From Thermoanaerobaculia bacterium (GTDB lineage Bacteria; Acidobacteriota; Thermoanaerobaculia; Gp7-AA8), in contig DASVQE010000106.1 in assembly GCA_036389275.1 (NCBI GenBank), positions 10,178-74,177 of the forward strand: 64,000 nt of DNA. The letters are read 5' to 3'. Position 1 is the stretch's first letter, and each line of letters opens with the position of its first letter. Positions 19,505 to 50,842 of the stretch are shown piece by piece. The notes beneath the pieces are model-generated. The model was not told the DNA's origin. It searched no databases and worked only from the letters and a program-made list of their open reading frames with translations. A program made the translations under genes and the position numbers.

Positions 19505-19693
19505 CCGTACAGGGGTTTCACCGACGCCACGCTCTGCATCGGCTGCAAGGCGTGCGAAGTGCCGTGTAAGGAGTGGAATGACGTGCCGGCGGTGGGTATG
19601 CGCTTCCGGCAGCTCGTACGACGGCCGGTTCGGCAGACCGGGCGAGTGACCCTCTGGTGCGGATGCTCTTGCATCAATTCGGCGCACCCTTGA
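19505..19693 (+). pseudogene. remnant of 4Fe-4S ferredoxin-type oxidoreductase subunit (FdnH/DmsB/HybA-family N-terminus)
   Basis: Startless 62-codon open frame encoding TDATLCIGCKACEVPCKEWNDV, resembling conserved N-terminal first-cluster motif of formate dehydrogenase-N beta-type subunits; remainder of frame unrelated. Confidence 0.3.
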
Positions 19694-20090: not shown

Positions 20091-20142
20091 ATAGAGCGAG
20101 GCAGTCAAGACGATCCTGTAACTCGTCGCACCGCTCCTATTC

Positions 20143-23100: not shown

Positions 23101-23469
23101 CTGCTGCTGCACGACGATCCACTGACGTTCAACGATCTTTTGGACACCGAGCTGAAGCTCGACTGCGACCTCTTTCTCGCGCTCGCATGTTTCGGGGCGC
23201 GTGTGGATGCCGACTGGCATTCGCGCGAGACCGTCGGTTTTTCCAGCGCGCTGCTGCAATCGGGCGTGCGCAATGTGGTCGCAGGACTGTGGCCGATGAC
23301 GGTGGGCTTCGCAACGGCGTTCGGGGCCGCGATCATGCGGCACCTCGCCGCTCGAGTGCCGATCGCCGACGCCTGCCGGCGTGCACTGATCGAGACGCGC
23401 GACGCCGATCCGCGCTGGGCCCATCCGTGGTCGTGGGCCGGTGTGAGGCTGACCGGCACCGGCTCCTGA
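20143..23469 (+). CDS. giant zinc-ribbon + TPR-like protein with C-terminal CHAT peptidase domain
   Basis: 1108 aa; N-terminal Cys4 ribbon (CGMCG ... CIVCPNC); helical repeats; C-terminal CHAT context VVFYFGHGDY (His) and LFLALACFGARVD (Cys). Confidence 0.75.
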   Translation: MYPLRMLSFVSDNAIPCGMCGFPLPRTTVYRVVRDDSDPVAVASVMDGNVNCIVCPNCEYKGWITIPLLWVDRAHKRAVFVENAASHPGQSETVFNELAEIAFGGVDPEDREAILGRLQQVKWPTEIRAALKLSPEQAEAERKAYDAFLRRDILPLPERLEQAIRDMIQSGAFYAEGRELSREFLALAEGELAKIAENDMSSRAQSLRQLVPNLAERIKTTSPQETPPVPAADWEAEGGPKFEGFTAWINVASRDSGEQGTTGKRGSAEAAPVVDFAGLAGRAASENDASERVAVLRELTSGYLNAGLPHEAAAAAREFLKAAGAANDQAAGVDALVFAAAAAARSGDGQAAINYLAHAEAEIHKMSSVSIQTLAYGAEIGGDAYMLVRRFPDACRQYQRALELYERDGRADGIRVALGRLANACMRAGDLDQAIAADRRLVDELGDTADGIRTRLNLGGALATASPPPELTVDIGFTVAPKSSPETQTAERLDAPAPAAPPGLRCRIEAKLRTEVGRERVLFETIVGDEAIDQMTRARNDAIRIGADDLELSAYDFMVNAFLGYHMRRAARDVLQLSIKRHEELGRSVRPYTVALLGAVWEATAQDAGVAGDQDEARNAWTRALGVFERAERESAARGELDAADEIRSMSKAGQSICLEALGRHAEARDGYRRAMGMFEGARQYLIERDQKEFVQGRSMILFSRAQRNNLALYASTGDAALLEESFYFADAGRSRILLDEIGAAGIARPVTVEDIAGGLPHGAALVQYSLMPTYPNCAGSWAIYTIVPRTGLAPFVIQQNLDQVLKARDALYSAIDTFQAGQWHDFGSFNAALEDLGSLLLPPQLVEFLRRSGVTRIIFAPEAYLMDVPFAALRVRWNGTLDDLSRGGIETIVVPSASVYVSAGERRAKESAAHSLLCISDPNEDLPGVTEWIDQNVRSTWPGKSEHLSKTNAVRSGVFGALPQARVVFYFGHGDYEQNDIDSSGLLLHDDPLTFNDLLDTELKLDCDLFLALACFGARVDADWHSRETVGFSSALLQSGVRNVVAGLWPMTVGFATAFGAAIMRHLAARVPIADACRRALIETRDADPRWAHPWSWAGVRLTGTGS

Positions 23470-28877: not shown

Positions 28878-29369
28878 CTATGGAGCGGCCAGGGCGGTGA
28901 GCGCGTCGCCGGTGACGCGGAAGATCGTCCACTCGTCGACGCTGCGCGCGCCGACGGAGCGATAGAAGCGGATGGCCGGCTCGTTCCAGTCGAGCACCGC
29001 CCATTCGAGGCGTCCGCAGCGGCGCTCGACGGCGAGCTGCGCGAGGTGGCGCAGCAGCGCGCGTCCGTATCCGCGGCCGCGCAGCTCGGGACGGACGTAG
29101 AGGTCTTCGAGGTAAATCCCGGGGCGGCCGAGGAACGTTGAGTAGTTGTGAAAGAAAAGGGCGAAGCCGGCGGGCTCGGAGTCTTCCTCGGCGATCACTA
29201 CCTCGGCGTACGGCGCGTCGCCGAACAGCGTCTCGGTCAGCGACTCGGTCGTGGCGACGACCTCGTGCGCGAGACGCTCGTAGTCGGCGAGCTCGCGGAT
29301 GAAGCGGAGGATCAGCGGGACATCGCCGGAAGTCGCGGCGCGGATGCGGAGCTGCGGCATGGCCGGCAT
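28878..29369 (-). CDS. GNAT family N-acetyltransferase
   Basis: Acetyl-CoA-binding pattern (RGRGYGRALL) and GNAT fold in C-terminal 164 aa of ORF 28878..29819; upstream Arg-rich extension judged non-coding, start at internal ATG. Confidence 0.75.
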   Translation of the reverse strand: MPAMPQLRIRAATSGDVPLILRFIRELADYERLAHEVVATTESLTETLFGDAPYAEVVIAEEDSEPAGFALFFHNYSTFLGRPGIYLEDLYVRPELRGRGYGRALLRHLAQLAVERRCGRLEWAVLDWNEPAIRFYRSVGARSVDEWTIFRVTGDALTALAAP

Positions 29370-29423
29370 CGTAACTCGGCGCCGCAACTCCGCTACAATC
29401 GCGGGCGGTCCGTTCCCAACGCG

Positions 29424-36227: not shown

Positions 36228-36848
36228 CACGCGGCGGGCGGCATCGGCGGTCGGCGTCCAGCGCAGCCGCAACGCGCGCAGTTTCGCGAGCGCCTCGATG
36301 ATCGGCATCACCGCGCGCCACAAGGCGGGATGCGGCGGCACGACGGCGACGGCGACGAGCGCGCGCATGGCCTCGCGCGCATTGAGAGGCTCGAGCGCGA
36401 CGTCGTCGCCGCGCCCGAGCTCGACGAGCGCGTGCAGCGGAAAGGAGCCCGCCGTCGCCGCGCGCGATTCGAGCTCGCCCCAGAAGCCGCTGGCGCGCGC
36501 GACGAACGCGTCGCCGCGCCGCTCGATGGCGATCAACTCGTCCGACAGCAGCGGCGCGTCGACGAGTGAGGCGAAGGTGCTTTTGCCGGCGCCGGAGCGG
36601 CCGTAGAAGGCGACGGCGCGCCCGCCGATCACGACGCCGGCGCTGTGCAGCAGCAGTCCGCCTGCGAGCGGAAGAAAGCAGGACAGGGCCGTGCGCTCGA
36701 CGATGGCGTCGGCGAACGGACGATCGTCGTCGGAGCAGTCGACGGAGATCGCGCGCGTGAATGGATCGATCGAGGCGTCGAAGCGGGCGTGCTGCACGAC
36801 GACGCGGTCGCCGTCGACGCGGATCTGCGCCGGCTCGCCGTCGTTCAT
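36210..36848 (-). CDS. HprK-related kinase (HPr kinase C-terminal-domain-like P-loop protein) of RiPP-like operon
   Basis: GRSGAGKSTFASL Walker-A in HprK-like context; start (ATGA) coupled to stop of upstream radical SAM gene; ORF track places start at 37100 inside rSAM gene, judged too far upstream. Confidence 0.6.
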   Translation of the reverse strand: MNDGEPAQIRVDGDRVVVQHARFDASIDPFTRAISVDCSDDDRPFADAIVERTALSCFLPLAGGLLLHSAGVVIGGRAVAFYGRSGAGKSTFASLVDAPLLSDELIAIERRGDAFVARASGFWGELESRAATAGSFPLHALVELGRGDDVALEPLNAREAMRALVAVAVVPPHPALWRAVMPIIEALAKLRALRLRWTPTADAARRVLAHFQ

Positions 36849-37849
36849 CCGCGCAGCTCCGCCGCGAGCGTGGCGCGGGCGACGAAGCCGGCGTCGGGCA
36901 GGAGCGGATCGCCGGTCTCCTGCATGGCCAGGGCCGGGCAGTAGGGGAACTGCGCGAGCGGACCGCCGGTGGCGACGAAGTGATCGTTGACGGCGGTCGA
37001 CATCGCGGCCGCTTCGGCGCGGACCTCCGAGGTGTGCCACAGCTCGCGCAGCGGCCGCTCGCGCACGTTGCCGAGGGCGCGATGGCGCCATTGCATGCAC
37101 GGAAAAACGTTGCCTTCGGGATCGATGGCCAGCGTGATGCGGCCGAGGCCGCAGTTCGCGCCGCCGGAGACGCGCTCCATCGGTTCGACGCCGCCGATGA
37201 GAAGCGCGCGGCGCACGGCCTCGCGCGACGGCGCGTAGGTGAGCGGCGAGAGGTCGCCGTCGTCGCGCGGCGTGAGATGGGGATCGATCTGCAGCGGCAG
37301 CTCGCGCGCCGCGGCGAGTGCGACGACGTCATCGAACTGCGTTTCGTTGAGGCGCGTGAGCGGCATCTTCAGCACCACCGGAACCTGGCGCGCGCGGAGC
37401 CGTGCGACGCCGGCGAGCATGGCCTCGAATGATCCCCGGCGCGCCGTCGCCGCCTCATGCACCTCGGCCGTCGCCCCGTGGATGCTCACTTCGACGGCGA
37501 GCACGCGCAGCGCTGCGATGGTGTCGGCGGCGGCGTCGTCGACGAGCGTGGCGTTCGTGAAGATGCGCAGCGCGAAGGCCTGCTCGCGCGCCGCGGCGGC
37601 GATGCGGAAAAACTCCGGATGGGCGAGCGGCTCGCCGCCGGTGAGGACGACGTTGAGCGTGCCGAGCGCGCGCAGCTCGCCGAGGACGGCGATCCACTCG
37701 TCGCCGCAAAGCGCGGCGCGGTCGAAGTGGCGCGGGTTGTAGCAGAAGACGCAGCGCCAGTTGCAGCGATACGTCAGCTCGAGCTGCACGTTCAGCGGCT
37801 GCGCCGCGGCGAGCGCTTTCTGTTTGAGGCGGACGAAGGGATCGCTCAT
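36845..37849 (-). CDS. radical SAM / SPASM-domain peptide-modifying enzyme
   Basis: CNWRCVFC (Cx3Cx2C cluster motif), glycine-rich VLTGGEPL SAM motif, C-terminal SPASM-like CGLGRITLAIDPEGNVFPC ... YCPA; coupled to PqqD-like gene upstream. Confidence 0.8.
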   Translation of the reverse strand: MSDPFVRLKQKALAAAQPLNVQLELTYRCNWRCVFCYNPRHFDRAALCGDEWIAVLGELRALGTLNVVLTGGEPLAHPEFFRIAAAAREQAFALRIFTNATLVDDAAADTIAALRVLAVEVSIHGATAEVHEAATARRGSFEAMLAGVARLRARQVPVVLKMPLTRLNETQFDDVVALAAARELPLQIDPHLTPRDDGDLSPLTYAPSREAVRRALLIGGVEPMERVSGGANCGLGRITLAIDPEGNVFPCMQWRHRALGNVRERPLRELWHTSEVRAEAAAMSTAVNDHFVATGGPLAQFPYCPALAMQETGDPLLPDAGFVARATLAAELRG

Positions 37850-38097
37850 GACTCGGTGAGCAGCCGGCGCTCGCGCAGGAGCGAGAGAAACTCGCGCACG
37901 TCGCGCGAGGCCGATTCCTGGTCGACGTCGAACTTTGCGGCGAGCGCGGCGGCGAGCTCGTGCTCGTCGCGGCCGTCGAGCTGCGTCCAGAGGTACGTGC
38001 CGGTTGGATTGAGACCAATGGTTTTGCCGCTGGCGAGATCGACGATGATCGCCTCACCGTCGACGACCTGCCAGGCGATCTCTTTGGCGACGTGCAT
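37846..38097 (-). CDS. PqqD-family RiPP recognition element (peptide chaperone)
   Basis: IAWQVVDGEAIIVDLASGKTIGLNPTGTYLWTQLDGRDEHELAAALAAKFDV...VREFLSLLRERRLL fits PqqD pattern; start at internal ATG (MHVAKE). Confidence 0.65.
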   Translation of the reverse strand: MHVAKEIAWQVVDGEAIIVDLASGKTIGLNPTGTYLWTQLDGRDEHELAAALAAKFDVDQESASRDVREFLSLLRERRLLTES

Positions 38098-38119: not shown

Positions 38120-38290
38120 TCAACTCGTCGGCGCCGCGTTGCAGATGCCGGCGCGGCCGGCGGTCTTGCCGCAGGCGACCGCAAGCGTCTTGCGCACGTC
38201 GAGCTCCTCTTCCCAGAGGATGGACGGCTTCTCGTATTCGGCTCGCGTCACGTCGCCCGCTGGTGCGGGTTTGTTGTCCTGCTCCGCCAT
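38120..38290 (-). CDS. candidate RiPP precursor peptide (56 aa)
   Basis: MAEQDNKPAPAGDVTRAEYEKPSILWEEELDVRKTLAVACGKTAGRAGICNAAPTS; AGGAA Shine-Dalgarno 5 nt upstream; first gene of operon directly 5' of PqqD/rSAM/kinase; Cys-containing C-terminal core ending in Ser. Confidence 0.45.
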   Translation of the reverse strand: MAEQDNKPAPAGDVTRAEYEKPSILWEEELDVRKTLAVACGKTAGRAGICNAAPTS

Positions 38291-38336: not shown

Positions 38337-38852
38337 TTACTCCGTCACCCGGAAGGTCGCCGGCTTGCTGCAGGCGATCGGCGCGTCGTCGACGTACGCC
38401 TGGGCGCTCCAGGTGCCGTAGATCGAGCTCGTCACGATCGGCGTGCCGGCGACCGGCAGCCGCACGAAGGCGCGGAGCTGCTTGCCGCTCGCGGTGGTCA
38501 CTTCCTCGAGCAGTTGCGTCTCGAGCGTCTGCGGATAGCCTTCGATCGCGACGTGCGAGCCTTTGCGCGACGCGTCGGCGGTGAACGGCACGGTCATCGA
38601 CTGATACAGATGGCCGCGCGGTGTGTAGATCCGCACTTCCACCTTGTGGTTGCCGGCGTACTGCTTGACGGTGCCGGGATGGAAGAGCACGGAGAGATCG
38701 ACGTCGATGACCTGCGTGGCCGAGAAGACGGCGTCGAATTTTCCTTTGTTCTTCTGCTCGGAGCCGAAGGCGACCCCGACGCAGCCGCCCGACTGCGCGA
38801 AGAGCGGTGCGGCGAGGGCGAACGTTGCGAGTGCGAGCGCTAGCTTCTTCAT
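38337..38852 (-). CDS. secreted hypothetical protein
   Basis: Signal peptide MKKLALALATFALAAPLFAQ; 171 aa, no motif. Confidence 0.5.
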   Translation of the reverse strand: MKKLALALATFALAAPLFAQSGGCVGVAFGSEQKNKGKFDAVFSATQVIDVDLSVLFHPGTVKQYAGNHKVEVRIYTPRGHLYQSMTVPFTADASRKGSHVAIEGYPQTLETQLLEEVTTASGKQLRAFVRLPVAGTPIVTSSIYGTWSAQAYVDDAPIACSKPATFRVTE

Positions 38853-38861
38853 GACGGCTCC

Positions 38862-41800
38862 TTACGGCAGCGGCGCGACGACGGCGTAAATCCGTCCCGC
38901 ATCGGTGCCGACGTAAACCTGATTGGTGGAGTAATCGAAGGACGGACTGCCGACGGCGGCGTCGCCCGTGCCGAGGGTGAGCGACTTGATGGTCGGCGCC
39001 GCGGCGGTGAGATTCGTGAGCTGATAGAGCTTGCCGTCGGCGGAGCCGGTGAAGAGGTGACCGCTGCCGGTCAGCAGCGGAATCGACGGGAACGCAATCG
39101 TGCCGACCACCCAATGCTGCGCGGCCGAAGAACCGTTGTTCGTGATCGCCCAGACCTTGTTGGTCGTGGCGACATAGAGATCGTTCGAGCCGTTCGCGAA
39201 ATCGGGATTGACGAAGCCTTTGATCGGACCGTCAGCGGTATCGAAGACCCAATTCTGCGCGCCGGTGGTGGCATTGAACGAATAGACCTTGCCGCTGTTG
39301 TTGCCGACCAGAATGCTGCCGTTGTAGAGCGTGATGCTGGCGTCGGAGTCGCCGGCGCTGATCGGGAAGCCGGTGCATTTCGCGGCGCTGTTGGCGGTGT
39401 AATCGAGGCACCAGATCGTGCCACTGCTGCCGCCGCTCTTGCTGCGGCTGGTGAAATAGAGCTTGTGCGTCGTGCCGCCGAATTCGACCCACGGATCGCC
39501 GCTGATGATGCCGATGCCATTGACGCCGCCGCCGTTATTGAACGACCAGGCCGCCGCACCGGTGGCGGCATTGAGCGCGTAGACCATATTGTCGGCGGTG
39601 GCGTTGCGCGTGGCGGCGAAAATCAGATTGTAGGTGCCGCCGTAGGAGGTGAATTCGCCGACGGGAGCCGCCTGAATCATGCTGCTCGCCGGCTGCGACG
39701 GGTGATTGGCCTTCCAGATCTGCGCGCCGGTATCGCCGTTGACGCAATAGACGAAGCCGTCCTGCGAGCCGAGGTAGAGCACCTTGCGGAGCGTGCCGCT
39801 GATGTCCACCGTCGGCACGGCCGGACGCCCTTGCGAGGCGCCGCCCATGAGGAACGGCAGCCACGTCGACGGCGAGGTCGGCCAGGTGCCGCTGGCCGCG
39901 TTCATCGAATGCAGGAAGCGGTCATTGGCTACTGAATAGACCGACCCGACGCCGGGAGGCGTCATCGACGCGGCGGTGGTGTTGTAGATCCACTTCACCT
40001 GCCCATTCACCGTGTCCTGCGGCCGCGCGGCAATCATGCGGCCATTGGAGACGGCCGTGCCGGCGCCGGTGTCGGTGTAGGCGGAGTAGTAGTAGGTCGT
40101 GCCGTTCTGCAGGCCGGTGACCGTGGTCGAGCTTTTGCCGCCCGGCGTGATGGCGAACGGCGAGCCGGCGACGGCGGTGCCGTCATTGATGCCGTTGGGG
40201 AACTGATCGGTGCGATAGCGGACGTGCAGACGCGAGCCGCTCGCGCCGGCCACCCACTCGATGGTGTTCTGATTGTTGCCCGAGGTCACGGTCATGATTT
40301 GCGAGGTGGCCGCCGGCGCATTACAGGTATTCGACGTGCTCGTGAGCACCTGCAGGTCGTCGATGAACCAGCCGAGATCGTTCGTGGCCGTGCAATTGGA
40401 GAGGCCGGTGAAATAGAACTTCACGCTCTTGCCGGCGCACGTGCCGCCGCACACCTGATCGAGATCGACCAGCGTGTTCTTCATCGTGTTCTGCTGGCCG
40501 CCCCAGATGCCGAGGTTCGCGTAGGGAAGTGCGGTGCCGCAGCCGTCGCCGTTGTCGGCCAGGCGAGTGCCCGTATAGCCGCCGTTGAGGAACGCGGCCG
40601 TCGGGATTTCGATCGCCGCGGCGCCGTTGACGGAGACGCGCAGATGCAGGCCGTCGCGCACGGTGCCGGCCATGTTCCAGCGGTGCCACATCGAGAAGCG
40701 GGCCCGCGTGGTGCCGGCCGGAATGTTGATGGTCGGCGAGGTGAGGTCGTCGTTCGCGCTGGCGCTGTACTGGCCGCCGCAGGTATTGGCGCCCCAGTGC
40801 AGGACGTTGCTGCCGCTGTAGGCAGGCGCGCAGTTCATCGCGCCGCGCCACTGTCCGGCGGCAGTCCAGCCGCTCGGCAGCGAGCCGGCGGTCGTCGTGT
40901 CGAAATTCTCGTAATAGACCGAGGAGAAATTGCCCGGCGACGCGCTCTGCACGACGGTGTTCTTATCTTCATTACCGCCGTTGCAGAGACCGCCGTTGCC
41001 GGTGGTGGAGTCTTCCGCGCGCACCTTGTAGTAGTAGGTCGTGCCGCCGGTGAGGGTGCTGTTGTCGTCGAAGGTGAGCGTCGAAAGGCACTTGGCGATG
41101 TTGTTCGCCGCGGCCGGTGTGAACGTCGAGGTCGTGCCGCGATAGACGTTGTAGACCACCGCCGGCTGGTCGGGGCAGTTGCTGAGACCTTCGCTCCACT
41201 CGAGGTGAATGCTGCAGCTATTGTTGGCGATGACGCCGCCCGGCAGGATCGAGTATTCGGAGGCGCTCTCGATGCCGGCGAACGACGGCACCTGCGCGCA
41301 ACTGCCGGTCGTGCCGGAGACACAGGTCGAACGGATCGACTCGCAATTGCCGGTGGCGGAGTCGATGGCGCTGACCGAATACCAGTAGCTCGTGCCGGAG
41401 ACGGCGCTCGAGTCGGTATAGGAGAGATTGTTCGCCGCGCAGCCGGCGGTGCCGGGGCAGGTGGCGATTTTCACCGGCGTGCCCTGCGGGCAGGCGGCGG
41501 TATTGCGATAGACGCTGTAGCTGCCGGCGCCGGTCGATGCGGCCCAGCCCACCGTGTAGGAGGTATTGGAATTCTTCGTGGCCGTGACGCCGGTCGGCGT
41601 GGCCGGGGCGGTACACGTCAGACAGTCGGGGAAGCGGAATGCCGCGAAGGCGGTGCTCCAATTGAAATTGCCGTCGCTGGCGATGTGCTCGTTGGTATGC
41701 CAGAACGTGCAGTCGTCCATCGGATCGATCGACGTCTGCGAATAATCGCCCCAGCGTGCATTGCCGGCGCTGCCGTCGGGATTGGTGGCCGGCTTGATGC

Positions 41801-43469
41801 CGCCGCCCGGCTGCACGATGGTCTCACCCTTGAGCAGCGGCGCGGTGGTGTTGTCGCCCACCTGCCGTCCATTGACGGCCATGCCCGGTTTCACAGTGCC
41901 GGCGATGCTGTAGCCGATGCCGATGTTCTGGCGCTTGTCCATGGCGATGGAGCCGAGCCAGCGCGCTTTATTGTCGGGCGCGTAGGTTTCCTGCAGCACG
42001 ATGCGCGGCAGGAGGTTCGTGCCGGTGCCGAGGGTCGCTTTCGGAGTGGTATTGGACGGATTGTCGAACAGATACCAGCGGATGCCGGCCGCGGAGCCGC
42101 TGTTGGTCGTGGTTGTGTCGGTGACGGTGTGATTGACCACCAGTCGATCATTGGGCGCGGCCGGCGTGCCGTAATTGCGATAGGCGAGGCGATACATCAG
42201 ATTGTTCGCCAGCGTATCGAGCCTCTGGGTCGTGCCGGGCTGCGGCACGTTCGCGGGCACGGAGTATTGCGTCACGGTGACGTCCTGCGCCGCGCTCACA
42301 GTGAGCGTCGGCGAGGCCGGCCAGGAGCCGTCCGCGTTCGAATTGATCTTGAGCCAGTAGAAGCGGAGGAACCAGCCGCTGTAGCAACAGCCGGAGACGC
42401 TCCGATAGTACGCGGCCGCCGCGCCGGGCATGGCTTGCGGAGGCGCGGTGAAGCCGTCGAGGCTCATCGGGGTGAAGCCGTCGACGGGCGTGGTGGCGTT
42501 CTTGCCGTTGCCGCCGCAGGGCGCCACAGTGGTGGCTTCCTCGCAGAGATAGCCGCTGTCGAGCTGCGTGGCGTCGGGCGCGCCGATGAGGAGCTTGGCG
42601 CGGTCGAAGATCAGCACCTTCGCGCCTTGGAATGCGCCCGCGGTGGTGAAGGCGCGGATGGTCATGTAATAGCCGTCCGGCCAGAGACCGATTTTCTCGT
42701 AATCGCCCATCATCCCGCCGGGAATGGCGTAATCCCAGCGGTAGTAGGTTCCGAGCGGATCGCCGGAGGTGGAGACGGCCAGACATTGATAATCGCTGGT
42801 GGCGCCGGTCGGGCGGCTGACGTCGAACTGGCTCAGGACCCAGCGGTCGGCGAGCTGGTCGTAATAGACGATCGGATCGCCGTCATTATTTTTCGCGCAA
42901 CGGTTGCCGTCAGTAGTCGGAAATCCGTCGAAGAGCGTATTGATGTCGACCGGTCCGTACAGCACGTTTCCCGTCTTGTCGAACACGGTCATCGACGAAT
43001 TCACGAGCTGCACGAAGTGGTTTTTCCCGACCGCACCTTCGGTGTCGGGCGGCTCGCCGGTGATCACATAGCCGCCGCCGGGGAAGGTCGCTCCCTGTCC
43101 CTGATACGTGGTGTTGTTGAGCCAGGTCGGGCCGGAGTCGGTGGTGATGCCGCCGAATCTCCGCGGGCCGCTCTGCGGCGCCTTGATCTCGCGCTCCGAG
43201 GAATCGGTCGTCGGCTGCTGCGGCGTCTGCGTCGCGCGCTCGGTCGCATGGACGCTCGCCAGCGGACCGTAGATGCGCTGGATGGTGACGTGCCCGCTGC
43301 TCTTCATCTCACGCAGCGGCTTCGAGACGTCGTGAACGCCGGGATAGTGCCGCAGTTGCGACACGAACTCCGGCGGCCCGGGCGTCTGCGAGTTGCCTTG
43401 CGCCCACAGCGGCAGCGCGGCCATCGCCGCAACCGCCACTACGCACCACTGCTTTGCACGTCGTTTCAT
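38862..43469 (-). CDS. very large secreted repeat protein (Fn3/Ig-like modules + C-terminal PQQ-type beta-propeller repeats)
   Basis: Signal peptide MKRRAKQWCVVAVAAMAALPLWAQG; Thr/Ser/Gly-rich repetitive modules; C-terminal repeated (A/N)ATGAxxWxF motifs typical of PQQ/BamB-like propellers; start at internal ATG 43467-43469. Confidence 0.7.
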   Translation of the reverse strand: MKRRAKQWCVVAVAAMAALPLWAQGNSQTPGPPEFVSQLRHYPGVHDVSKPLREMKSSGHVTIQRIYGPLASVHATERATQTPQQPTTDSSEREIKAPQSGPRRFGGITTDSGPTWLNNTTYQGQGATFPGGGYVITGEPPDTEGAVGKNHFVQLVNSSMTVFDKTGNVLYGPVDINTLFDGFPTTDGNRCAKNNDGDPIVYYDQLADRWVLSQFDVSRPTGATSDYQCLAVSTSGDPLGTYYRWDYAIPGGMMGDYEKIGLWPDGYYMTIRAFTTAGAFQGAKVLIFDRAKLLIGAPDATQLDSGYLCEEATTVAPCGGNGKNATTPVDGFTPMSLDGFTAPPQAMPGAAAAYYRSVSGCCYSGWFLRFYWLKINSNADGSWPASPTLTVSAAQDVTVTQYSVPANVPQPGTTQRLDTLANNLMYRLAYRNYGTPAAPNDRLVVNHTVTDTTTTNSGSAAGIRWYLFDNPSNTTPKATLGTGTNLLPRIVLQETYAPDNKARWLGSIAMDKRQNIGIGYSIAGTVKPGMAVNGRQVGDNTTAPLLKGETIVQPGGGIKPATNPDGSAGNARWGDYSQTSIDPMDDCTFWHTNEHIASDGNFNWSTAFAAFRFPDCLTCTAPATPTGVTATKNSNTSYTVGWAASTGAGSYSVYRNTAACPQGTPVKIATCPGTAGCAANNLSYTDSSAVSGTSYWYSVSAIDSATGNCESIRSTCVSGTTGSCAQVPSFAGIESASEYSILPGGVIANNSCSIHLEWSEGLSNCPDQPAVVYNVYRGTTSTFTPAAANNIAKCLSTLTFDDNSTLTGGTTYYYKVRAEDSTTGNGGLCNGGNEDKNTVVQSASPGNFSSVYYENFDTTTAGSLPSGWTAAGQWRGAMNCAPAYSGSNVLHWGANTCGGQYSASANDDLTSPTINIPAGTTRARFSMWHRWNMAGTVRDGLHLRVSVNGAAAIEIPTAAFLNGGYTGTRLADNGDGCGTALPYANLGIWGGQQNTMKNTLVDLDQVCGGTCAGKSVKFYFTGLSNCTATNDLGWFIDDLQVLTSTSNTCNAPAATSQIMTVTSGNNQNTIEWVAGASGSRLHVRYRTDQFPNGINDGTAVAGSPFAITPGGKSSTTVTGLQNGTTYYYSAYTDTGAGTAVSNGRMIAARPQDTVNGQVKWIYNTTAASMTPPGVGSVYSVANDRFLHSMNAASGTWPTSPSTWLPFLMGGASQGRPAVPTVDISGTLRKVLYLGSQDGFVYCVNGDTGAQIWKANHPSQPASSMIQAAPVGEFTSYGGTYNLIFAATRNATADNMVYALNAATGAAAWSFNNGGGVNGIGIISGDPWVEFGGTTHKLYFTSRSKSGGSSGTIWCLDYTANSAAKCTGFPISAGDSDASITLYNGSILVGNNSGKVYSFNATTGAQNWVFDTADGPIKGFVNPDFANGSNDLYVATTNKVWAITNNGSSAAQHWVVGTIAFPSIPLLTGSGHLFTGSADGKLYQLTNLTAAAPTIKSLTLGTGDAAVGSPSFDYSTNQVYVGTDAGRIYAVVAPLP

Positions 43470-43489
43470 CTCTCTCTCCGGTGTCGGGA

Positions 43490-43942
43490 TCAATCGTTCT
43501 CGCGGAAGCCTTCCGGGGCAAAGGACTGCATGGTCACGCGCCACTCACCGCGCTCGCGTTTCCAGACGGCGAAGTAGCCGCCGTCTTCTTCGCGGAAATC
43601 GCCCGGTCCGGCCAGCACACGCAGTTTCCAGCGGCCCATCTGCACATACAGGTCGCCGGACTCCTCGGATTTTTCGGTGGTCAGCTCGAAGGTGCCGCGC
43701 TCGAGCATGGCGCGCCATTTGTCGCGCGCCTCTTCGCGGCTGCGGGTGATGCCCTGGCCGGCGAAGGCGATGATCGGCTCGGCGGCGTAGAAGCGGCGCA
43801 CGAGCGTCTCGACGTCGCCTTTGTTGGCGGTCGCGACCAGCGCTTCGCTTTTCTCGTCGAGCTCGCGGCACGGAGTCGTGGCGCAAGCCGCTCCGGCAAG
43901 CGTCGTCACGACGGCGAAGACCGCTACGAACCTCGAGGGCAT
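43490..43942 (-). CDS. SnoaL/NTF2-like (DUF4440-type) lipoprotein
   Basis: Signal/lipobox-like N-terminus (LAGAAC); NTF2-fold-like pattern (RRFYAAEPIIAFAG...YFAVWKRERGEWRV). Confidence 0.5.
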   Translation of the reverse strand: MPSRFVAVFAVVTTLAGAACATTPCRELDEKSEALVATANKGDVETLVRRFYAAEPIIAFAGQGITRSREEARDKWRAMLERGTFELTTEKSEESGDLYVQMGRWKLRVLAGPGDFREEDGGYFAVWKRERGEWRVTMQSFAPEGFREND

Positions 43943-44014: not shown

Positions 44015-45040
44015 TCACGACAGGTTTGCTCTTTTCATCGGGGCGAACTGCGCTCGATGATGGACCTTGGCTGCGGATTGTACTGAATAACCAACCGGCG
44101 CGCGGAAAAGTCCCATCGCCCGGCGGCAATAGAGAAAGGGCAATAGCAGACGCGACGTTGCGCCGTATTTGTGCAGCACGTGCTCGGCCGGCGGCAAGGC
44201 GTGCTCGCGCACGAAACGGACGCGGTCGGCGACTCCGGAGAGCTCGCGAAAATCGGCCGCGAACTGGCGCATGGCCGAGGGACGTCCGGTGGCGCGCGTC
44301 TCCATGGCGGTGGCGGCGGCGAGGCCGCGGGCCAGCTCGCGCAGTACGCGTTTCTCGCGCGCGGTGCGCATCACTTCGGGCCAGTCGACGATGCCGGCCA
44401 AGAGGTGAATGTCGTGCAGCCAGATCAGCCGCTCTTCGCCGCAGTGATGCCCGGCCAGATGCACGGCCGCGAGCAGCAGCGCGTCGACGGCGCTCGGCAC
44501 GCGCACGCGCTGCGAATCGCGGAAGCGCTCGCCGCGCGCGCGCAGCGCGTCGAAGTCGAAGGCGCGGGCGAAGCGCGGGCGATTGGAAATCTCGAGATGC
44601 AGATCGACGCTGTGGCGCAGGCCGAGGGCGTCGACGCGCGTGAAGATCCGCTGGGCGTTGACGATCGTGCCGCTGTTGCCGCTCTCGGCCGTGTAGCCGA
44701 GGGCGGTCAGGATCTGTGCGGCCGCGCGGCCGTCGCCGCGACGCACGACCAGATCGGTGTCGCAGCGCGGGCGCAGCGACGGATGGTCGTAGAGCGTGTA
44801 GGCGAGGGCGGTTCCTTTGATGATGAGCGCGTCGACGGCGGCGCGATCGAACGCAGCGAGGAGCGCGTCGAGCTCGCGCTCGCGCAGCACCTCGACCGTG
44901 ACGAGCTGCCGCGACTCGGCGGCGAGCGCTTCCGGCACCGCCGCGCCGCGGCGGCGCAGCTCGCGCGCGACGAGCGGTCCGACGCCTTCGCGCGTGGCCA
45001 CGGCGGGATCGAGCGCGGCGTAAAAGTCGCCCGGATTCAT
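44015..45040 (-). CDS. uncharacterised nucleotidyltransferase-family protein (PF14907-like), RiPP-associated type
   Basis: RCDTDLVV (Asp pair after Gly/Ser stretch) and overall size/pattern similar to nucleotidyltransferases seen beside lasso-peptide-type machinery; ATGA-coupled to B2-like gene upstream. Confidence 0.5.
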   Translation of the reverse strand: MNPGDFYAALDPAVATREGVGPLVARELRRRGAAVPEALAAESRQLVTVEVLRERELDALLAAFDRAAVDALIIKGTALAYTLYDHPSLRPRCDTDLVVRRGDGRAAAQILTALGYTAESGNSGTIVNAQRIFTRVDALGLRHSVDLHLEISNRPRFARAFDFDALRARGERFRDSQRVRVPSAVDALLLAAVHLAGHHCGEERLIWLHDIHLLAGIVDWPEVMRTAREKRVLRELARGLAAATAMETRATGRPSAMRQFAADFRELSGVADRVRFVREHALPPAEHVLHKYGATSRLLLPFLYCRRAMGLFRAPVGYSVQSAAKVHHRAQFAPMKRANLS

Positions 45041-45483
45041 CGGCGGTACGCCAGCGCCAGGCCCTGCTCGGCGATGTGGATGGGTTGATAGCGGGAGACG
45101 AGCTCGGCGGAGTCGTTGACGACGGCGCCGTTCACTTCGAGCCAGGCGTGGCCCGGCAGCAGCGACGGCTTCGCGCCGAGGCCGATGCGCAGTCGGGCGC
45201 GCACACCGCGCCGCGCCAGCACCCGCTGCAGGGCGAGGCTGCGATGCATGCAGTTGTGCGCGAACGGCGCGCGCGCGGCGGCTCTCGCGAATGCCGCGAC
45301 CACGCGCGGATCGGCCGGCGCGGCGCTGGCTTCACCGTCGAGCGCGCCGCGCAGCGCGCGTTGCGGCGCGAGGCGAAGCGCGATGCGCGCGCAGGCGAGC
45401 GCCAGCAGGCACTCGGCCGCGAGGCCGGTCGTTCTGGGAATGGACACGATTGTGCGGAAGAACTTTCCTCCGCCTCTGTTCAT
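45037..45483 (-). CDS. transglutaminase-like Cys protease of lasso-peptide B2 type (PF13471-like)
   Basis: CMHRSLALQRVLARRGVRARLRIGLG...LLPGHAWLEVNGAVVND: Cys...His-Ala-Trp...Asp arrangement characteristic of lasso B2 leader peptidases; start taken at internal ATG to avoid overlap with divergent gspE start. Confidence 0.55.
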   Translation of the reverse strand: MNRGGGKFFRTIVSIPRTTGLAAECLLALACARIALRLAPQRALRGALDGEASAAPADPRVVAAFARAAARAPFAHNCMHRSLALQRVLARRGVRARLRIGLGAKPSLLPGHAWLEVNGAVVNDSAELVSRYQPIHIAEQGLALAYRR

Positions 45484-45509
45484 TTCCTGCGAGTACCATT
45501 CTTTCGGCC

Positions 45510-47315
45510 ATGACCACCGCTCCGACATCACCGCTGCAGAAGGCGCACGACCTCACCGTCGCCTACCTCGGCGAGCTGTTGTTCAACGCCGGCTTCATCG
45601 ACGAGCGGCAGCGCGCCGACGTCGAGGCCGCCGACCGGCAGTTCCGGCTCGCGCAGCGCGGCTCGCGCGGCCGCGGCGAAGAAGACGCGAGCCCGTTCCG
45701 CGTGATCGCCTCGATGAACCTCGTCGACGCCAGCGGCAACGCCACGCGCATCGACGACTTCCTGCTGGCGCGCCTGATCGCCGAGGACGCGCGCCTGCCG
45801 TTCCACAAAATTGACGCGCTCAAGCTCGACGTGCAGCTCGTCGAATCGAAGATCTCGCGTCCGTTCGCGCGCAAGCACAAGATGGTTCCGGTGGCCGTGC
45901 GCGACGGCAAGCTCGTCGTGGCCATGGTCAATCCGTTCGACCGCGTCGCGCTCGACTCCTACCGCCCGATGGCGAAGCAGGAGCTCGAGGTCGTCGTCGC
46001 CGCGGAGTCGGACGTGATGGGTGTGATCAACGAGCAGTACGGATTCCGCGCCTCGGTCACGAAGGCGGAGCGCGACCTGACGCGCGGCGCGATCGATCTC
46101 TCCAACCTCGAGCAGTACGTCAAGCTCAAGTCGGGCGCGGAGATCGAGACCAGCGACGCGCACATCGTCAACGCCGTCGATTTTCTTCTGCAGCACGCCT
46201 ACGACTCGCGCGCCTCCGACATCCACATCGAGCCGAAGCGCGAGCACGCCAACATCCGCTTCCGCATCGACGGCGTGCTGCACGAGATCCAGCGCGTGCC
46301 GAAGCTGGTGAATCTCGCCATCACCTCGCGCCTCAAGACGATGTGCCGGATGGACATCGCCGAGAAGCGCCGGCCGCAGGACGGCCGCATCAAGACCGAG
46401 CGCGAAGGAAAAGAGATCGAGCTGCGCGTCTCGACGCTGCCGACCGCGTTCGGCGAGAAAGTGGTGATGCGCATCTTCGATCCCGAGGTGATGATTCGCG
46501 ACCTCGGCGGCCTCGGGTTTTATGAGGACGAGCTGCGAGTCTTCGCCGACTGGATCAAGCGTCCGCACGGCATCATCCTCGTCACCGGACCGACCGGCTC
46601 CGGCAAGACCGTCACGCTCTACTCCGCGCTCAAGTCGCTGGCCTCGCCCGAGATCAACATCACCACCATCGAAGATCCGATCGAGATGGTGCACGACGAC
46701 TTCAACCAGACCTCGGTGCAGAACAAGATCGGGATCACCTTCGCGTCGGCGCTGCGCACCATCCTGCGGCAGGACCCCGACATCATCATGGTCGGCGAGA
46801 TCCGCGATCAGGAGACTGCACAGAATGCAGTGCAGGCCGCGCTGACCGGACATCTGGTCTTCTCGACGCTGCACACCAACGACGCCTCGACCTCGATCAC
46901 GCGCCTGGTCGATCTCGGCATCCAGCCCTTCCTGATCTCCTCGACGCTGATCGGCGCGATGGCGCAGCGGCTGGTGCGGAAGATCTGCGCCGACTGCCGC
47001 ACCAATCGTCCGCTGACGGTGGAAGAGGCGGCCATGCTCAACCTGCAGGCGCCGGCCGGCAAGCGGATCATCGTGAAGGAAGGCGCCGGCTGCATCCGCT
47101 GCCGCAACACCGGCTACTTCGGCCGCACCGGCATCTTCGAGATCCTGCCGGTCGACAACGCCATCCGCGATCTGGTCGACCGCGGCGAGGACTTTCTGAA
47201 GATCAAGGAGATGGCCATCAAGCGCGGCATGCGCACGCTGCGTCAGAGCGCGCTGCGGAAGCTCGCCGAAGGGCTGACCAGCTTCGAGGAAGTGGTGCGG
47301 GTGACCGGGATTTAA
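45510..47315 (+). CDS. type II secretion / type IV pilus assembly ATPase (GspE/PilB family)
   Basis: Walker A VTGPTGSGKTVTLYS, Asp box, Walker B IIMVGEIRD, His box, tetracysteine CADC...CIRC; N-terminal GspII_E_N-like region. Confidence 0.85.
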   Translation: MTTAPTSPLQKAHDLTVAYLGELLFNAGFIDERQRADVEAADRQFRLAQRGSRGRGEEDASPFRVIASMNLVDASGNATRIDDFLLARLIAEDARLPFHKIDALKLDVQLVESKISRPFARKHKMVPVAVRDGKLVVAMVNPFDRVALDSYRPMAKQELEVVVAAESDVMGVINEQYGFRASVTKAERDLTRGAIDLSNLEQYVKLKSGAEIETSDAHIVNAVDFLLQHAYDSRASDIHIEPKREHANIRFRIDGVLHEIQRVPKLVNLAITSRLKTMCRMDIAEKRRPQDGRIKTEREGKEIELRVSTLPTAFGEKVVMRIFDPEVMIRDLGGLGFYEDELRVFADWIKRPHGIILVTGPTGSGKTVTLYSALKSLASPEINITTIEDPIEMVHDDFNQTSVQNKIGITFASALRTILRQDPDIIMVGEIRDQETAQNAVQAALTGHLVFSTLHTNDASTSITRLVDLGIQPFLISSTLIGAMAQRLVRKICADCRTNRPLTVEEAAMLNLQAPAGKRIIVKEGAGCIRCRNTGYFGRTGIFEILPVDNAIRDLVDRGEDFLKIKEMAIKRGMRTLRQSALRKLAEGLTSFEEVVRVTGI

Positions 47316-47677: not shown

Positions 47678-50332
47678 CTAACGCTTCCAGTCGGTCACCA
47701 GCGTGATCGAGCGCAGATAGTCGTTGCGATCCTTGAGCAGGTAGACGAAGTGTTTGCCGTCGATGGTGGCGACGTTCTCGAGGTCAGGCGGATGGTTCAC
47801 GATCCGCTGCGGGTCGCCGACACGCACGGTGTTGCCGTCGAAGGTGAGGCGTACCAGGTCGAAGCCGTCCTTCTTGAGCAGCAGCAGCGCGTCGTTGCCG
47901 ATCCATTGCGCGCGATAAGCGGTGTCGAAAGTGATCTGCGTGCGCGCGGCGCCGTTCGGGTAGCGCGAGATGTAGACCTCCGGCTGGCCGGAGTCGTACG
48001 CGCGGTAGGCGAGCCAGCGGTCGTCGGGTGAGAGCACCGGCACGCTTGGTTCGGCGGCGCCCGTCACCAGCGCCTCGGGCTTCGCGCCGGGATGCAGCGC
48101 CAGACGGTCGATCTCCGCGTTGCCGTCGCGCTGCGTATCGTGCTTGACCACGATCGCGTAGGTGGCGTCGTGCGTGACGTCGGCGGTGTTGTACGAGTAC
48201 GGCATCTCGGCGCCGCGATAGAGCACTTCCTCCGGCGCGTCGGTATCGAGCGAGCGCAGCACGATCTGCTGCTCGTCGACGCCGAAGCCGTGGCTGCGCG
48301 TCAACACGATGCGCCGCGAGTCATGCAGCCACGCGGCGTCCCATTCGTTCACGTCCGCCGTCGAGGTGAGCCGCTTCGCGCCGCTGCGGTTCATGTCGAA
48401 GAGCCAGAGATCGCCGTAGCCGCTCTGCGCGTCGACGGCGCGCACGAGCATCTTCTGCCCGTCCGGCGAGAGCAGAAAGGCCTCGACGTCGAGCTGCGGG
48501 CGGAAGAGCTCCTTCTGCACGCCGCCGGCTTCGACCGAAACGAAGTGCAGCGATTCCGGACCGCCGCGCTGGTGATAGACGAGCGTGCCGTCGCCGGCCA
48601 CCGCGAACGCGGAGCGGAAGAGCGCGGTGTTGACCTCGACCGCCGCGCCGACGCGATACGGATCGCCGGTGAAGCGGAGTTCGCCGGCATCGAACGGCCG
48701 CGCCAGCAGCACGCCGTCCTTCTCGTACAGCAGATGTCCGCTCGCGTAGGCGACGTTCGATCGCGCGCGCAGCAGCAGCTTGCGCGACTTCGGCTCGTCG
48801 AGCGAGCTGACGTAGACGGCGTCGAGCTCGCGGTTCGTCGCCTCGCGATGCGAGCCGGCCAGGTAGAGGAAATGCTTTCCGTCGGGGAGGAACGTGGCCC
48901 AGCGATGGGTGGTCTCGTCCTTCGACGCGTCGAGTTGCGTCAGCGCCACCGGCTCGCCGCCGTCCTGCGACACGCGCGACAGACCGCTGACGGCGGTCGG
49001 CGCGAAGATGATCGTCCCGTCCGCGTTCCACCCGCCGCTGCGTCCTTTCGGCGCGTCGCAGAGCGTGACCGGCGGCGCGCCGTTGAGCGTCACTTTCTTC
49101 AGCTTGCCGCCGGCGAAGAAGGCGATCGACTTGCTGTCGGGCGACCAGAACGGCAGCGACGCATCTTCCGTCCCGTCGACCTGCCGCGCCTCGCCGCTGG
49201 CGATGTCGCGCACCCACAGCCGCCGGTCGCTCGTTGCGCGGTACGTCACCAGCCGGCCGTCGGGCGAGATCGAGAGCGCCGTCATCGGATCGTTGAGCTC
49301 TTTGCCCGCGGGCGCGAGGATCTGCGCCGTGACCGCGGTGCGCGCGATGTCGCGATGCGCGTTGCGCCACGCATACGCGCCGGCGATCGCCGCCAGCACC
49401 AGAGCGCAGGCGGCGGCGATCCACGGCAGCAGCGACGACCGCGGGCGCTGCGCCTCGACGCGCGCGTCGGCGTTCTTCGCCACCCATTCCAGCTCGAGCC
49501 GCACGTCGTGCGCCGACTGCCAGCGCGCCTCCTGATCTTTCTCGAGGCAGCGCTGCACGATGTGCTCGAGTCCCGCCGGCGTGACCGGCTGCAGCTCCGA
49601 CATCGGCCGCGGCGAGCCGGCCACGATCGCGGCGATGAGGCTCGTCTTGGTCTTGCCGGAGAAGGCGCGCCTTCCGGTGACCATCTCGTAGATCACCGCG
49701 CCGAGCGCGAACAGGTCGGTGCGCGGATCGACGTCGGCCGACTCGAGCTGCTCCGGCGCCATGTATTGAAAGGTCCCGACGATCGATCCCTCGGCGGTGA
49801 GCGGCGCTTTCTGCGCCACCGTCGGCGCGTCGACCGAGATCGCCGGCTGCGCCTCCGCCGCCGCTTTGGCCAGTCCGAAGTCGAGCAGCTTCGCGCCGCC
49901 GCGGGTGAGCATGACGTTGCCCGGCTTCAGATCGCGGTGCACCACGCCGTCGCGATGCGCGCGCTCGAGTGCCGCGGCGATGTCGATGGCGTAGCGCAGC
50001 GCCTCCTTGAGCGGCAGCGCGCCGCGCTCGAGCCGCTCGGCCAGCGTCTCTCCTTCGAGAAACTCCATCACCAGGAAATCGACGCCGTCCTGTTCGCCGA
50101 CGTCGTAGAGCGCGCAGATGTTCGGGTGGCTGAGCGCGGAGATCGCCTTCGCCTCGCGCTGGAACCGCAGCCGCAGTTGCGCGTCGCGCGCGAGCTCGGC
50201 CGGCAGCGTCTTCACCGCCACGGTGCGGTCGAGGCGCGTGTCGCGCGCGCGAAACACTTCACCCATGCCGCCCGCGCCGACGCGCGTCACGATCTCGTAC
50301 GGTCCCAAACGCGAGCCCGGCTGGATGGACAT
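47678..50332 (-). CDS. Ser/Thr protein kinase with TM segment and C-terminal TolB-like (PD40) beta-propeller
   Basis: N-terminal Hanks kinase (GAGGMGEVFRA, VAVKTL, HRDLKPGNVM, DFGLAK, APEQ); single TM (LLPWIAAACALVLAAIAGAY); repeated xDGxxxVY / SPDG propeller blades. Confidence 0.8.
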   Translation of the reverse strand: MSIQPGSRLGPYEIVTRVGAGGMGEVFRARDTRLDRTVAVKTLPAELARDAQLRLRFQREAKAISALSHPNICALYDVGEQDGVDFLVMEFLEGETLAERLERGALPLKEALRYAIDIAAALERAHRDGVVHRDLKPGNVMLTRGGAKLLDFGLAKAAAEAQPAISVDAPTVAQKAPLTAEGSIVGTFQYMAPEQLESADVDPRTDLFALGAVIYEMVTGRRAFSGKTKTSLIAAIVAGSPRPMSELQPVTPAGLEHIVQRCLEKDQEARWQSAHDVRLELEWVAKNADARVEAQRPRSSLLPWIAAACALVLAAIAGAYAWRNAHRDIARTAVTAQILAPAGKELNDPMTALSISPDGRLVTYRATSDRRLWVRDIASGEARQVDGTEDASLPFWSPDSKSIAFFAGGKLKKVTLNGAPPVTLCDAPKGRSGGWNADGTIIFAPTAVSGLSRVSQDGGEPVALTQLDASKDETTHRWATFLPDGKHFLYLAGSHREATNRELDAVYVSSLDEPKSRKLLLRARSNVAYASGHLLYEKDGVLLARPFDAGELRFTGDPYRVGAAVEVNTALFRSAFAVAGDGTLVYHQRGGPESLHFVSVEAGGVQKELFRPQLDVEAFLLSPDGQKMLVRAVDAQSGYGDLWLFDMNRSGAKRLTSTADVNEWDAAWLHDSRRIVLTRSHGFGVDEQQIVLRSLDTDAPEEVLYRGAEMPYSYNTADVTHDATYAIVVKHDTQRDGNAEIDRLALHPGAKPEALVTGAAEPSVPVLSPDDRWLAYRAYDSGQPEVYISRYPNGAARTQITFDTAYRAQWIGNDALLLLKKDGFDLVRLTFDGNTVRVGDPQRIVNHPPDLENVATIDGKHFVYLLKDRNDYLRSITLVTDWKR

Positions 50333-50352
50333 GGAGCCTCGATGATACGACG

Positions 50353-50817
50353 ATGGAAGCGATGCTTCGTTACGCGCCGGAGACGATCATGCGCGATGCC
50401 CGCGCGCAATACTTCCGCCGATCGGGATTTGCGGAAGACGGCGGTTATGGAGATCGGTGGGTCCGTCTGAAAAGCGGCTCGCGCACCGTCTTCGTTTTCC
50501 CGAACACTGAGCGCCGCGTCCGCGCGGTGCGGCTGCACGATCTGCATCACGTGCTCACCGAGTACGACACCACCTGGGTGGGCGAGGCGGAGATCGGCGC
50601 ATGGGAGCTCGGCGCCGGCTGCGGACGTCACTGGCCGGCCTGGGTGCTCAACTTCGGCGCGGTCGCCGTCGGCCTGCTGCTCGCGCCGCGACGCGTGGTG
50701 CGCGCGTTCGTGCGCGGCCGCCGCAGCGGCACGCTGTACGCCGGCGAGTTCGCCGAGGAGCTGCTCGATCGCACGGTGGGCGAGCTGCGCGCGTCGCTCC
50801 CCATCGCGCCGGGCTGA
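50353..50817 (+). CDS. hypothetical protein with Coq4-like HDxxH...E metal-binding motif
   Basis: HDLHHVLTEYDTTWVGEAE resembles Coq4-family HDxxH-x11-E zinc motif; two C-terminal hydrophobic helices; weak assignment. Confidence 0.3.
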   Translation: MEAMLRYAPETIMRDARAQYFRRSGFAEDGGYGDRWVRLKSGSRTVFVFPNTERRVRAVRLHDLHHVLTEYDTTWVGEAEIGAWELGAGCGRHWPAWVLNFGAVAVGLLLAPRRVVRAFVRGRRSGTLYAGEFAEELLDRTVGELRASLPIAPG

Positions 50818-50842
50818 GCGGCGGTGCTACTCTTTTCGGACT

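Follow-up and report, generated by a model that had tools for sequence, protein, structure and literature searches.

A lasso-type B2 protease and a PF14907 nucleotidyltransferase as probable accessory enzymes of a radical SAM peptide cluster in Thermoanaerobaculia

A 64-kb stretch of contig DASVQE010000106.1 (hereafter the window), from a high-GC metagenome-assembled genome (MAG) of Thermoanaerobaculia (Acidobacteriota), carries two overlapping genes for a transglutaminase-core cysteine protease of the lasso peptide B2 type and for a nucleotidyltransferase-fold enzyme of family PF14907 (NTase). These two proteins are probably (we put the probability at about 0.7) accessory maturation enzymes of a neighbouring cluster for a peptide that is made on the ribosome and modified after translation (RiPP). 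This cluster consists of a precursor gene and genes for a PqqD-family RiPP recognition element (RRE), a radical S-adenosylmethionine (rSAM)/SPASM enzyme and a ScmC-family P-loop protein resembling HprK. From its gene content we infer that the cluster is a lasso-type B1/B2/K/N toolkit in which an rSAM/SPASM enzyme takes the place of the asparagine synthetase-like cyclase.

The B2 and nucleotidyltransferase genes and their linkage to the precursor operon

The open reading frame (ORF) of B2 (45037–45531, minus strand) was matched by PF13471 (Transglut_core3) with 76.1 bits against a cut-off of 26 and by NF033537 (lasso_biosyn_B2) with 61.1 bits against a cut-off of 33. Its start codon is ambiguous between GTG 45531, ATG 45483, which had been chosen in the first-pass annotation of this DNA, and GTG 45447. 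The last of these corresponds to the 136-aa NCBI call for the best of 44 B2 homologs (P0001, 99% identity), a 'lasso peptide biosynthesis B2 protein' from a Thermoanaerobaculia MAG. Among 23 aligned homologs, the Cys in NCMHRSLAL and the His in GHAW did not vary and the Asp at His+12 was mostly conserved, and for this reason B2 looks like an active Cys/His/Asp protease.

The downstream ORF was matched by PF14907 (NTP_transf_5) with 123.9 bits (cut-off 31.2). Residues K75-G76, D94-x-D96 and D146 were invariant among 28 homologs and match the catalytic motif of the nucleotidyltransferase fold, hG[GS] ... DxD ... D; the sequence RCDTDLVV, to which attention had been drawn at first reading, contains the D94-x-D96 pair. 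An AlphaFold (AF2) model of the NTase with a mean predicted local distance difference test (pLDDT) of 88.8 returned only nucleotidyltransferase-fold proteins from the PDB in a Foldseek search, the best being MenT1, TglT, ANT(2'')-Ia and LnuA, with weak matches (query-length-normalised template modelling (TM) score of 0.33–0.39, identity of 15–16%). Searching the B2 and NTase sequences against PDB chains gave no meaningful match. With both proteins above the family cut-offs and their catalytic residues intact, the families and positions originally assigned to the two genes were upheld.

The two genes overlap by 4 bp in an ATGA stop/start (cgATGAat, as read from the sequence), and this overlap was also called in four related loci (L001–L004). 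Fusion proteins of B2 and NTase exist (P0176, P0190; 506 aa), and in one locus (L172) a PqqD gene is followed by such a fusion. This locus agrees with the earlier statement that both families accompany PqqD proteins and HprK-like kinases, as do the lasso-type sets found among distant relatives at 32% identity (L006 and the context of P0202), in which B2 and NTase genes occur together with Asn synthase, an HprK-like kinase and PqqD. A second, unpaired PF14907 gene was observed in L001 (211–1296, minus strand), ~9 kb upstream of the B2-NTase pair.

To relate the pair to the precursor operon, from which it is separated by 5.7 kb in the window, seven distinct lineages with coupled B2-NTase genes (54–66% B2 identity) were compared. 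The precursor operon was present within ~14 kb of the pair in all six lineages that could be tested, while the contig of the seventh (L002) ends inside the gene for the giant secreted protein which lies between pair and operon. A lack of association with the operon at 36–38 kb, which the first-pass annotation had named as the observation that would count against it, was thus not what the homologs showed; the outcome was in its favour. The linkage was kept in two gene orders with differing flanks. In the first (L004, L005 and L092), the nine-gene colinear array of the window is repeated at 54% B2 identity, with a CHAT gene upstream and a TonB receptor gene downstream where the window has a type IV pilus ATPase and a PUA methyltransferase. 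In the second (L001, L003, L008 and L101), a block of two giant genes and a gene for a ~185-aa protein is inverted and converges on the NTase gene, with the precursor-PqqD-rSAM-ScmC operon located just past this block (L009, L100, L096 and L101; L009 and L001 share one contig of 1.08 Mb, and L100 and L003 likewise share one contig).

The same question was approached from the side of the operon by scanning species-representative genomes with an alignment of ScmC, which gave 80 loci whose neighbours within 10 kb were identified using iterated hidden Markov models (HMMs). A PF14907-type gene was found in 15 of the 80 loci, always on the strand of ScmC, and was directly adjacent to ScmC in seven (L039, L046, L051, L071, L073, L085 and L090) belonging to Burkholderiales, Anaerolineae, Competibacteraceae and Chloroflexia. 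B2-type genes were present in seven loci, lying directly upstream of the precursor (L016, L017) or ~80 bp upstream of it (L022), beside or near ScmC (L024, L029), or with a PqqD-NTase unit (L062, L088). B2 also immediately precedes the precursor gene in L153, and L171 holds NTase, precursor, ScmC, PqqD and rSAM genes together. The co-occurrence check suggested with the first-pass annotation thus placed B2 or NTase directly beside the precursor or ScmC in distant genomes. Judged from these gene neighbourhoods, the association of the B2-NTase pair with the operon is real, and B2 and NTase are accessory and dispensable, since most of the sampled ScmC operons are without them within 10 kb.

A lasso cyclase was sought in the window by two routes. 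No Asn_synthase (PF00733) was found among the sizeable ORFs scanned with Pfam, and a phmmer search with an Asn synthetase from a lasso cluster detected nothing among the six-frame ORFs of the window. As the same query found an unrelated Asn synthase at 7.6e-13 in a positive control, this negative result is meaningful. Asn synthase was likewise found within 10 kb in none of the 80 ScmC-centred loci. The absence of a cyclase, as first noted, was thereby confirmed within the 64 kb, and an HMM of the precursor found a single copy across the window, in line with the earlier remark that no second precursor is visible. A second precursor adjoining the B2-NTase genes was considered and dropped, the intergenic gaps being ~62 bp and 72 bp. 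An orphan or degenerate lasso remnant was also dropped, given the conservation of catalytic residues and gene coupling.

The precursor family, the operon enzymes and a predicted maturation route

The candidate precursor proposed in the first-pass annotation proved to be a real, conserved gene, whose leader carries the lasso-type YxxPx[IVL] motif and whose last residue is an invariant Ser. An alternative start at TTG 38317 would give a peptide of 65 aa. The peptide is conserved in L004, and 73 ORF matches were found across phyla, from which 66 unique complete sequences were used for statistics. The leader motif YxxPx[IVL] is present in 64 of the 66 (YEKPSI in the window) and exactly two Cys in 63, the first Cys being 21 or 18 residues past the Tyr and the last 5–8 residues from the end. 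All 66 complete sequences end in Ser; the only other endings among the matches belong to one poor or frameshifted match and one truncated by a contig end. In lasso precursors, YxxPxL is the leader recognition motif at positions −17 to −12 (PMC10368454). When the window peptide was tested against the lasso rule, YEKPSI and RKTL were present and Asp or Glu at core position 7–9 was absent; indeed the core, AVACGKTAGRAGICNAAPTS if the leader is cut after RKTL, contains no Asp or Glu at all. A lasso macrolactam is therefore not possible, which fits the missing cyclase. Tandem pairs of precursors of the same YEKP...C...C...S family were observed in two distant ScmC-PqqD-rSAM loci (L036, 3761–3913 and 3937–4059; L040, 4273–4488 and 4607–4729).

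The PqqD protein of the operon is the only one in the window and its gene is not adjacent to B2. Its best NCBIfam match was the lasso PqqD chaperone family NF033530, with 41.6 bits under a cut-off of 70. For the rSAM/SPASM enzyme, the best NCBIfam matches were MftC, NirJ, PqqE and ScmE, all under cut-off, with the mycofactocin maturase MftC ranking first. The third enzyme is placed in the HprK/PEPCK superfamily by several lines of evidence. A protein identical to it (P0045) has a precomputed match to PF27840 (ScmC), as have most of its homologs (~200 were found) and the L004 protein, while a Pfam scan of a 296-aa version of the ORF returned no family. Its Walker A motif GRSGAGKST and the motif SDE are invariant, and its profile matches the P-loop of PEPCK in the PDB. 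BLASTP aligned it with the HprK-like kinase of the lasso cluster L006 (E=7e-6, 30% identity over 89 residues), and its AF2 model (pLDDT 95.3) gave a list of top-50 PDB folds consisting entirely of PEPCK or HPr kinase/phosphatase. In two acidobacterial loci a second HprK-like gene occurs together with B2 upstream of the precursor (L016, 1830–3938; L022, 6370–8100), so that each has two kinase-like proteins; L016 also has a second PqqD and hence two RREs.

The chemistry of the cluster can be predicted by analogy with the lasso systems in which related proteins have been studied. HprK homologs act on lasso precursors by phosphorylating their C-terminal Ser, and in the pseudomycoidin cluster the phospho-Ser receives one or two hexoses from an adjacent NTase, a protein that in some cases is fused to B2 (PMC8498205). 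In Bradymonas, the B1 RRE is needed both for the HprK-type kinase and for cleavage by B2 (PMC10368454). On this model, the single PqqD would bind the YxxPx[IVL] leader, as lasso B1 proteins do, and would present the peptide to the rSAM/SPASM enzyme, by which the two conserved Cys would be cross-linked or otherwise modified. The C-terminal Ser may then be phosphorylated by the ScmC/HprK-fold P-loop protein, and a hexose or a nucleotide (nucleoside monophosphate) may be put on that phosphate by the PF14907 enzyme. The nucleotidylation expected from the first-pass annotation is not the sole reading of the NTase, because the pseudomycoidin N protein, the one studied homolog, adds hexoses. Finally B2, lacking a dedicated PqqD, would borrow that of the operon and cut the leader near a conserved Leu at Tyr+17, the predicted cut in the window being after RKT or RKTL.

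More tentatively, and with somewhat less than an even chance of being right, these loci may represent an undescribed RiPP class that is widespread in Acidobacteriota, Chloroflexota and some Proteobacteria. Its peptide, marked by a YxxPx[IVL] leader, two Cys and a C-terminal Ser, would be cross-linked by the rSAM/SPASM enzyme and phosphorylated on this Ser by the ScmC/HprK-fold kinase; in some lineages the PF14907 enzyme would then glycosylate or nucleotidylate it, and B2, sharing the single PqqD of the cluster, would release it. This would be the first lasso B1/B2/K/N machinery on a non-lasso scaffold. In Acidobacteriota, the peptide product may work together with the giant secreted beta-propeller protein.

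The surrounding gene array and alternative readings

The pair and the operon form part of an array of nine genes between 45.5 and 36.2 kb, all on the minus strand with short gaps between them, in the order B2, NTase, DUF4440, giant secreted protein, 171-aa protein, precursor, PqqD, rSAM/SPASM and ScmC/HprK-like P-loop protein (Table 1). Overlaps of 4 bp occur at B2/NTase, PqqD/rSAM and rSAM/ScmC. As the nine genes are co-directional and tightly packed, the action of the pair on the precursor 'in trans', as first suggested, may be an unnecessary assumption. In a scan for promoters and terminators from 35.9 to 45.9 kb the counts were at chance level, from which one transcription unit cannot be told from several. 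A terminator-like hairpin with a T-run was seen at 38344–38327 (minus strand), in the gap separating the 171-aa gene's stop from the start of the precursor.

Table 1. Genes of the nine-gene array in the window, in order of transcription
Feature	Coordinates	Strand	Evidence and remarks
B2-type transglutaminase-core Cys protease (putative leader peptidase)	45037..45483	−	PF13471, NF033537, conserved triad
PF14907 nucleotidyltransferase-fold enzyme	44015..45040	−	PF14907, KG/DxD/D, AF2 model; ATGA overlap with B2
DUF4440 (NTF2-like) small protein with N-terminal hydrophobic signal-like segment	43490..43942	−	PF14534, 40.3 bits
Giant secreted protein, 1,535–1,560 aa, fn3 and C-terminal PQQ-like beta-propeller	38862..43544	−	PF13360, PF13570, fn3
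171-aa secreted protein with two near-invariant Cys	38337..38852	−	always paired with giant protein
Precursor, 56 aa from ATG 38290	38120..38290	−	leader YEKPSI, core AVACGKTAGRAGICNAAPTS, C-terminal Ser
PqqD-family RRE, 83 aa from ATG 38097	37846..38097	−	PF05402, 71.3 bits
Radical SAM/SPASM peptide maturase (CNWRCVFC)	36845..37849	−	PF04055, 86 bits; PF13186, 36.9 bits; 4-bp overlap with PqqD
ScmC-family HprK/PEPCK-fold P-loop protein (putative peptide kinase), 212 aa	36210..36848	−	ATGA overlap with rSAM gene

Between the pair and the operon, the giant secreted protein and the NTF2-like DUF4440 protein reported in the first-pass annotation were both present; the 171-aa secreted protein had not been singled out. 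The DUF4440 gene is found at the equivalent position only in the colinear arrays (L004, L005 and L092). The giant protein likely starts with MKRRAKQW at 43469, and its homologs adjoin the precursor operon in most acidobacterial loci. No Pfam or NCBIfam match was found for the 171-aa protein. In a diverse alignment of its family (A2), C23 is invariant and C160 nearly invariant; as A2 was too variable for scanning the genome collection, a narrower alignment (A3) was used instead. Together, the giant and 171-aa genes are conserved with the precursor-PqqD-rSAM-ScmC operon in most acidobacterial loci, more constantly than B2 and NTase are. One giant, in L010, carries a Peptidase_S8 domain, and a 1,574-aa Peptidase_C25 protein occupies the place of the giant in L171. 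It may be that the proteins in the giant/171-aa place act as the leader protease in clusters without B2, or that they are the partner or target of the peptide.

Genes for two MshEN/T2SSE secretion ATPases lie on the plus strand at ~45510–47315 and 50471–53149. The first is TfpB-like and divergent from B2 across only ~62 bp, and a GAF domain is present in the second. The TfpB-like ATPase keeps its synteny with B2 in L001–L003 and is probably unrelated to the cluster, because this synteny is absent in L004 and L008. Elsewhere in the window, a pair of large CHAT-domain/TPR proteins, of which one has a CpXC domain at its N-terminus, are encoded beside a DUF900 alpha/beta hydrolase (15894–19517, minus strand; 20122–23469, plus strand; 23483–24922, minus strand), and CHAT proteins are seen next to B2 in L004 and L001 as well. 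There are also two large Ser/Thr protein kinases (29142–32204, plus strand; 47678–50386, minus strand), one with PDZ and GAF domains and the other with PD40/TolB-like beta-propeller repeats.

A number of points weigh against assigning B2 and NTase to maturation of the operon's peptide. Within 10 kb, B2 is lacking from 73 and NTase from 65 of the 80 ScmC loci, and another protease must remove the leader wherever B2 is missing. As the genomes of the seven B2-NTase lineages are related and Thermoanaerobaculia-like, their linkage to the operon could partly be inherited synteny. The inverted arrangement places the pair ~11 kb away from the precursor, in a transcription unit of its own. With regard to the peptide, the lasso-typical Thr at position −2 (RKTL) is limited to the clade of the window, being for this reason dropped as a general B2 signature, and a cut behind the Leu would leave the spacing from the Tyr one residue short of agreement with the lasso rule. 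The ScmC-like protein scores far under the HprK_rel_A/B cut-offs. The invariant C-terminal Ser could alternatively be a target of the rSAM enzyme, because MftC, an enzyme which acts at the C-terminus of its peptide, heads the sub-threshold NCBIfam matches of the latter. It should also be noted that the view of this genome covers 64 kb.

The position of the pair, which lies immediately beside the giant/171-aa block in all close B2-NTase lineages, raises the possibility that B2 and NTase act on the giant and/or the 171-aa secreted protein, for example by trimming or nucleotidylation, and not on the peptide; the tighter bond of that block to the operon in Acidobacteriota, as described above, points the same way. 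This is thought to be unlikely. B2 or NTase genes co-occur with ScmC, PqqD and rSAM in six loci where no homolog of the giant or 171-aa protein is nearby (L039, L046, L051, L062, L088 and L090), and giant/171-aa pairs without the operon (L164–L170) are accompanied by neither B2 nor NTase. Moreover, the giant and 171-aa proteins are secreted, but a signal peptide is lacking from B2 and NTase. All B2 proteins studied so far cut leader peptides that are bound to an RRE (PMC10368454).

Very unlikely, in our view, is a service of the pair to a conventional lasso pathway elsewhere in the genome, with its position in the window being synteny without functional meaning. Such a pathway would agree with the lasso B2 label given to the window protein by NF033537 and with the relatives at 32% identity that sit in true lasso-type clusters with Asn synthase, and it could lie beyond the 64 kb in view. 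However, Asn synthase was found neither in the window nor in any locus of this type by searches that detected one in the positive control, and the genes of a lasso pathway normally lie together. The link with the operon also survives an inversion and a change of both flanks, recurring in unrelated arrangements and phyla, and the only PqqD partner for B2 is that of the operon. An independent module, such as a MenT/TglT-like toxin nucleotidyltransferase with a protease partner, or a decaying remnant, is highly improbable: MenT1 and TglT are the top structural matches of the NTase model and the weak terminator-like and promoter-like signals remain compatible with separate transcription, but these fold matches are weak and extend to antibiotic nucleotidyltransferases, PADLOC defence models returned nothing beyond trivial P-loop matches, the retention of catalytic residues and of the 4-bp coupling at 54–66% B2 identity speaks against decay, and the consistent RiPP context and the PqqD-B2-NTase fusions indicate peptide maturation.

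Both the lasso B2 proteases and the K/N tailoring pair are considered specific to lasso pathways. The cluster indicates that annotations as 'lasso B2' also cover non-lasso pathways. If B2 and NTase do belong to the rSAM peptide cluster as proposed, such annotations, together with lasso-mining rules, would put the wrong name on a whole set of clusters. Leader peptidases that depend on an RRE and phospho-decoration of a C-terminal Ser would then be portable modules swapped between RiPP classes. The ScmC-type cassettes, long uncharacterised, would be given a concrete precursor family and a chemistry that can be tested by its expected mass shifts, those of phosphate, hexose or NMP and a loss of 2 Da for each cross-link. 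Without the secreted proteins the cluster spans ~3.5 kb, which is small enough for heterologous reconstitution.

Comparison with known RiPP systems

In the literature searched, the coverage of which was incomplete so that an earlier description is possible, neither a cluster combining rSAM/SPASM, HprK-fold and B2/PF14907 proteins nor the precursor family was described. The window cluster can nevertheless be set beside four groups of known systems. With sactipeptide, ranthipeptide and mycofactocin systems it has in common an rSAM/SPASM enzyme with a PqqD RRE and a short core containing Cys, and the combination of rSAM/SPASM with two conserved Cys is compatible with thioether cross-links at these residues. 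It differs from them in that all family scores are under the cut-offs. We know of no such system, also from the literature searched, that includes an HprK-fold protein, a PF14907 enzyme or a lasso B2.

The HPr-rel-A system (TIGR04352, HprK_rel_A; TIGR04353, PqqD_rel_X) likewise pairs an HprK-related P-loop protein with a PqqD-family chaperone, and in a context of this type (P0202) PF13471 and PF14907 neighbours are present with Asn synthase and no rSAM enzyme. The HMM searches recommended in the first-pass annotation bore out PF13471 and PF14907 for the window but not the HPr-rel-A families, of which it is not a member (16.7 bits against a cut-off of 200 and 28.5 bits against a cut-off of 35).

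The SynChlorMet (SCM) cassette, as its NCBIfam/TIGRFAM names indicate, comprises ScmC, ScmD (a PqqD protein) and ScmE/ScmF (rSAM/SPASM). Here too a ScmC-family protein (PF27840), PqqD and rSAM/SPASM are found together, and the weak best matches of the window proteins include ScmD and ScmE. Unlike this cassette, the window scores only 33.6 bits for ScmD (cut-off 100), 100.2 bits for ScmE (cut-off 400) and 65.5 bits for ScmF (cut-off 400), has one rSAM enzyme instead of two and has a clear precursor family. Beyond the SynChlorMet set, the window also has B2, NTase and the giant secreted proteins.

The last group is that of the K/N lasso clusters, namely those of paeninodin, pseudomycoidin and Bradymonas (bsf: A, B1, B2, C, D, K, N). 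Unlike these, the window cluster has no Asn synthetase cyclase, no ABC exporter and no acidic residue in the core, with an rSAM/SPASM enzyme and two conserved Cys instead; its kinase-like protein is of the ScmC family and its B2-NTase genes are at a distance from the precursor. Of the hallmarks of a lasso cluster, therefore, a B2 with its triad and an available PqqD are present, while the cyclase and the acidic core residue are missing. All the elements of K/N tailoring are found, however, namely the HprK/PEPCK fold, the PF14907 enzyme and a precursor ending in Ser. As in the K/N lasso clusters, these occur with a split PqqD RRE, a YxxPx[L/I/V] leader and a PF13471 B2 protein whose gene adjoins, or is fused to, that of the PF14907 protein.

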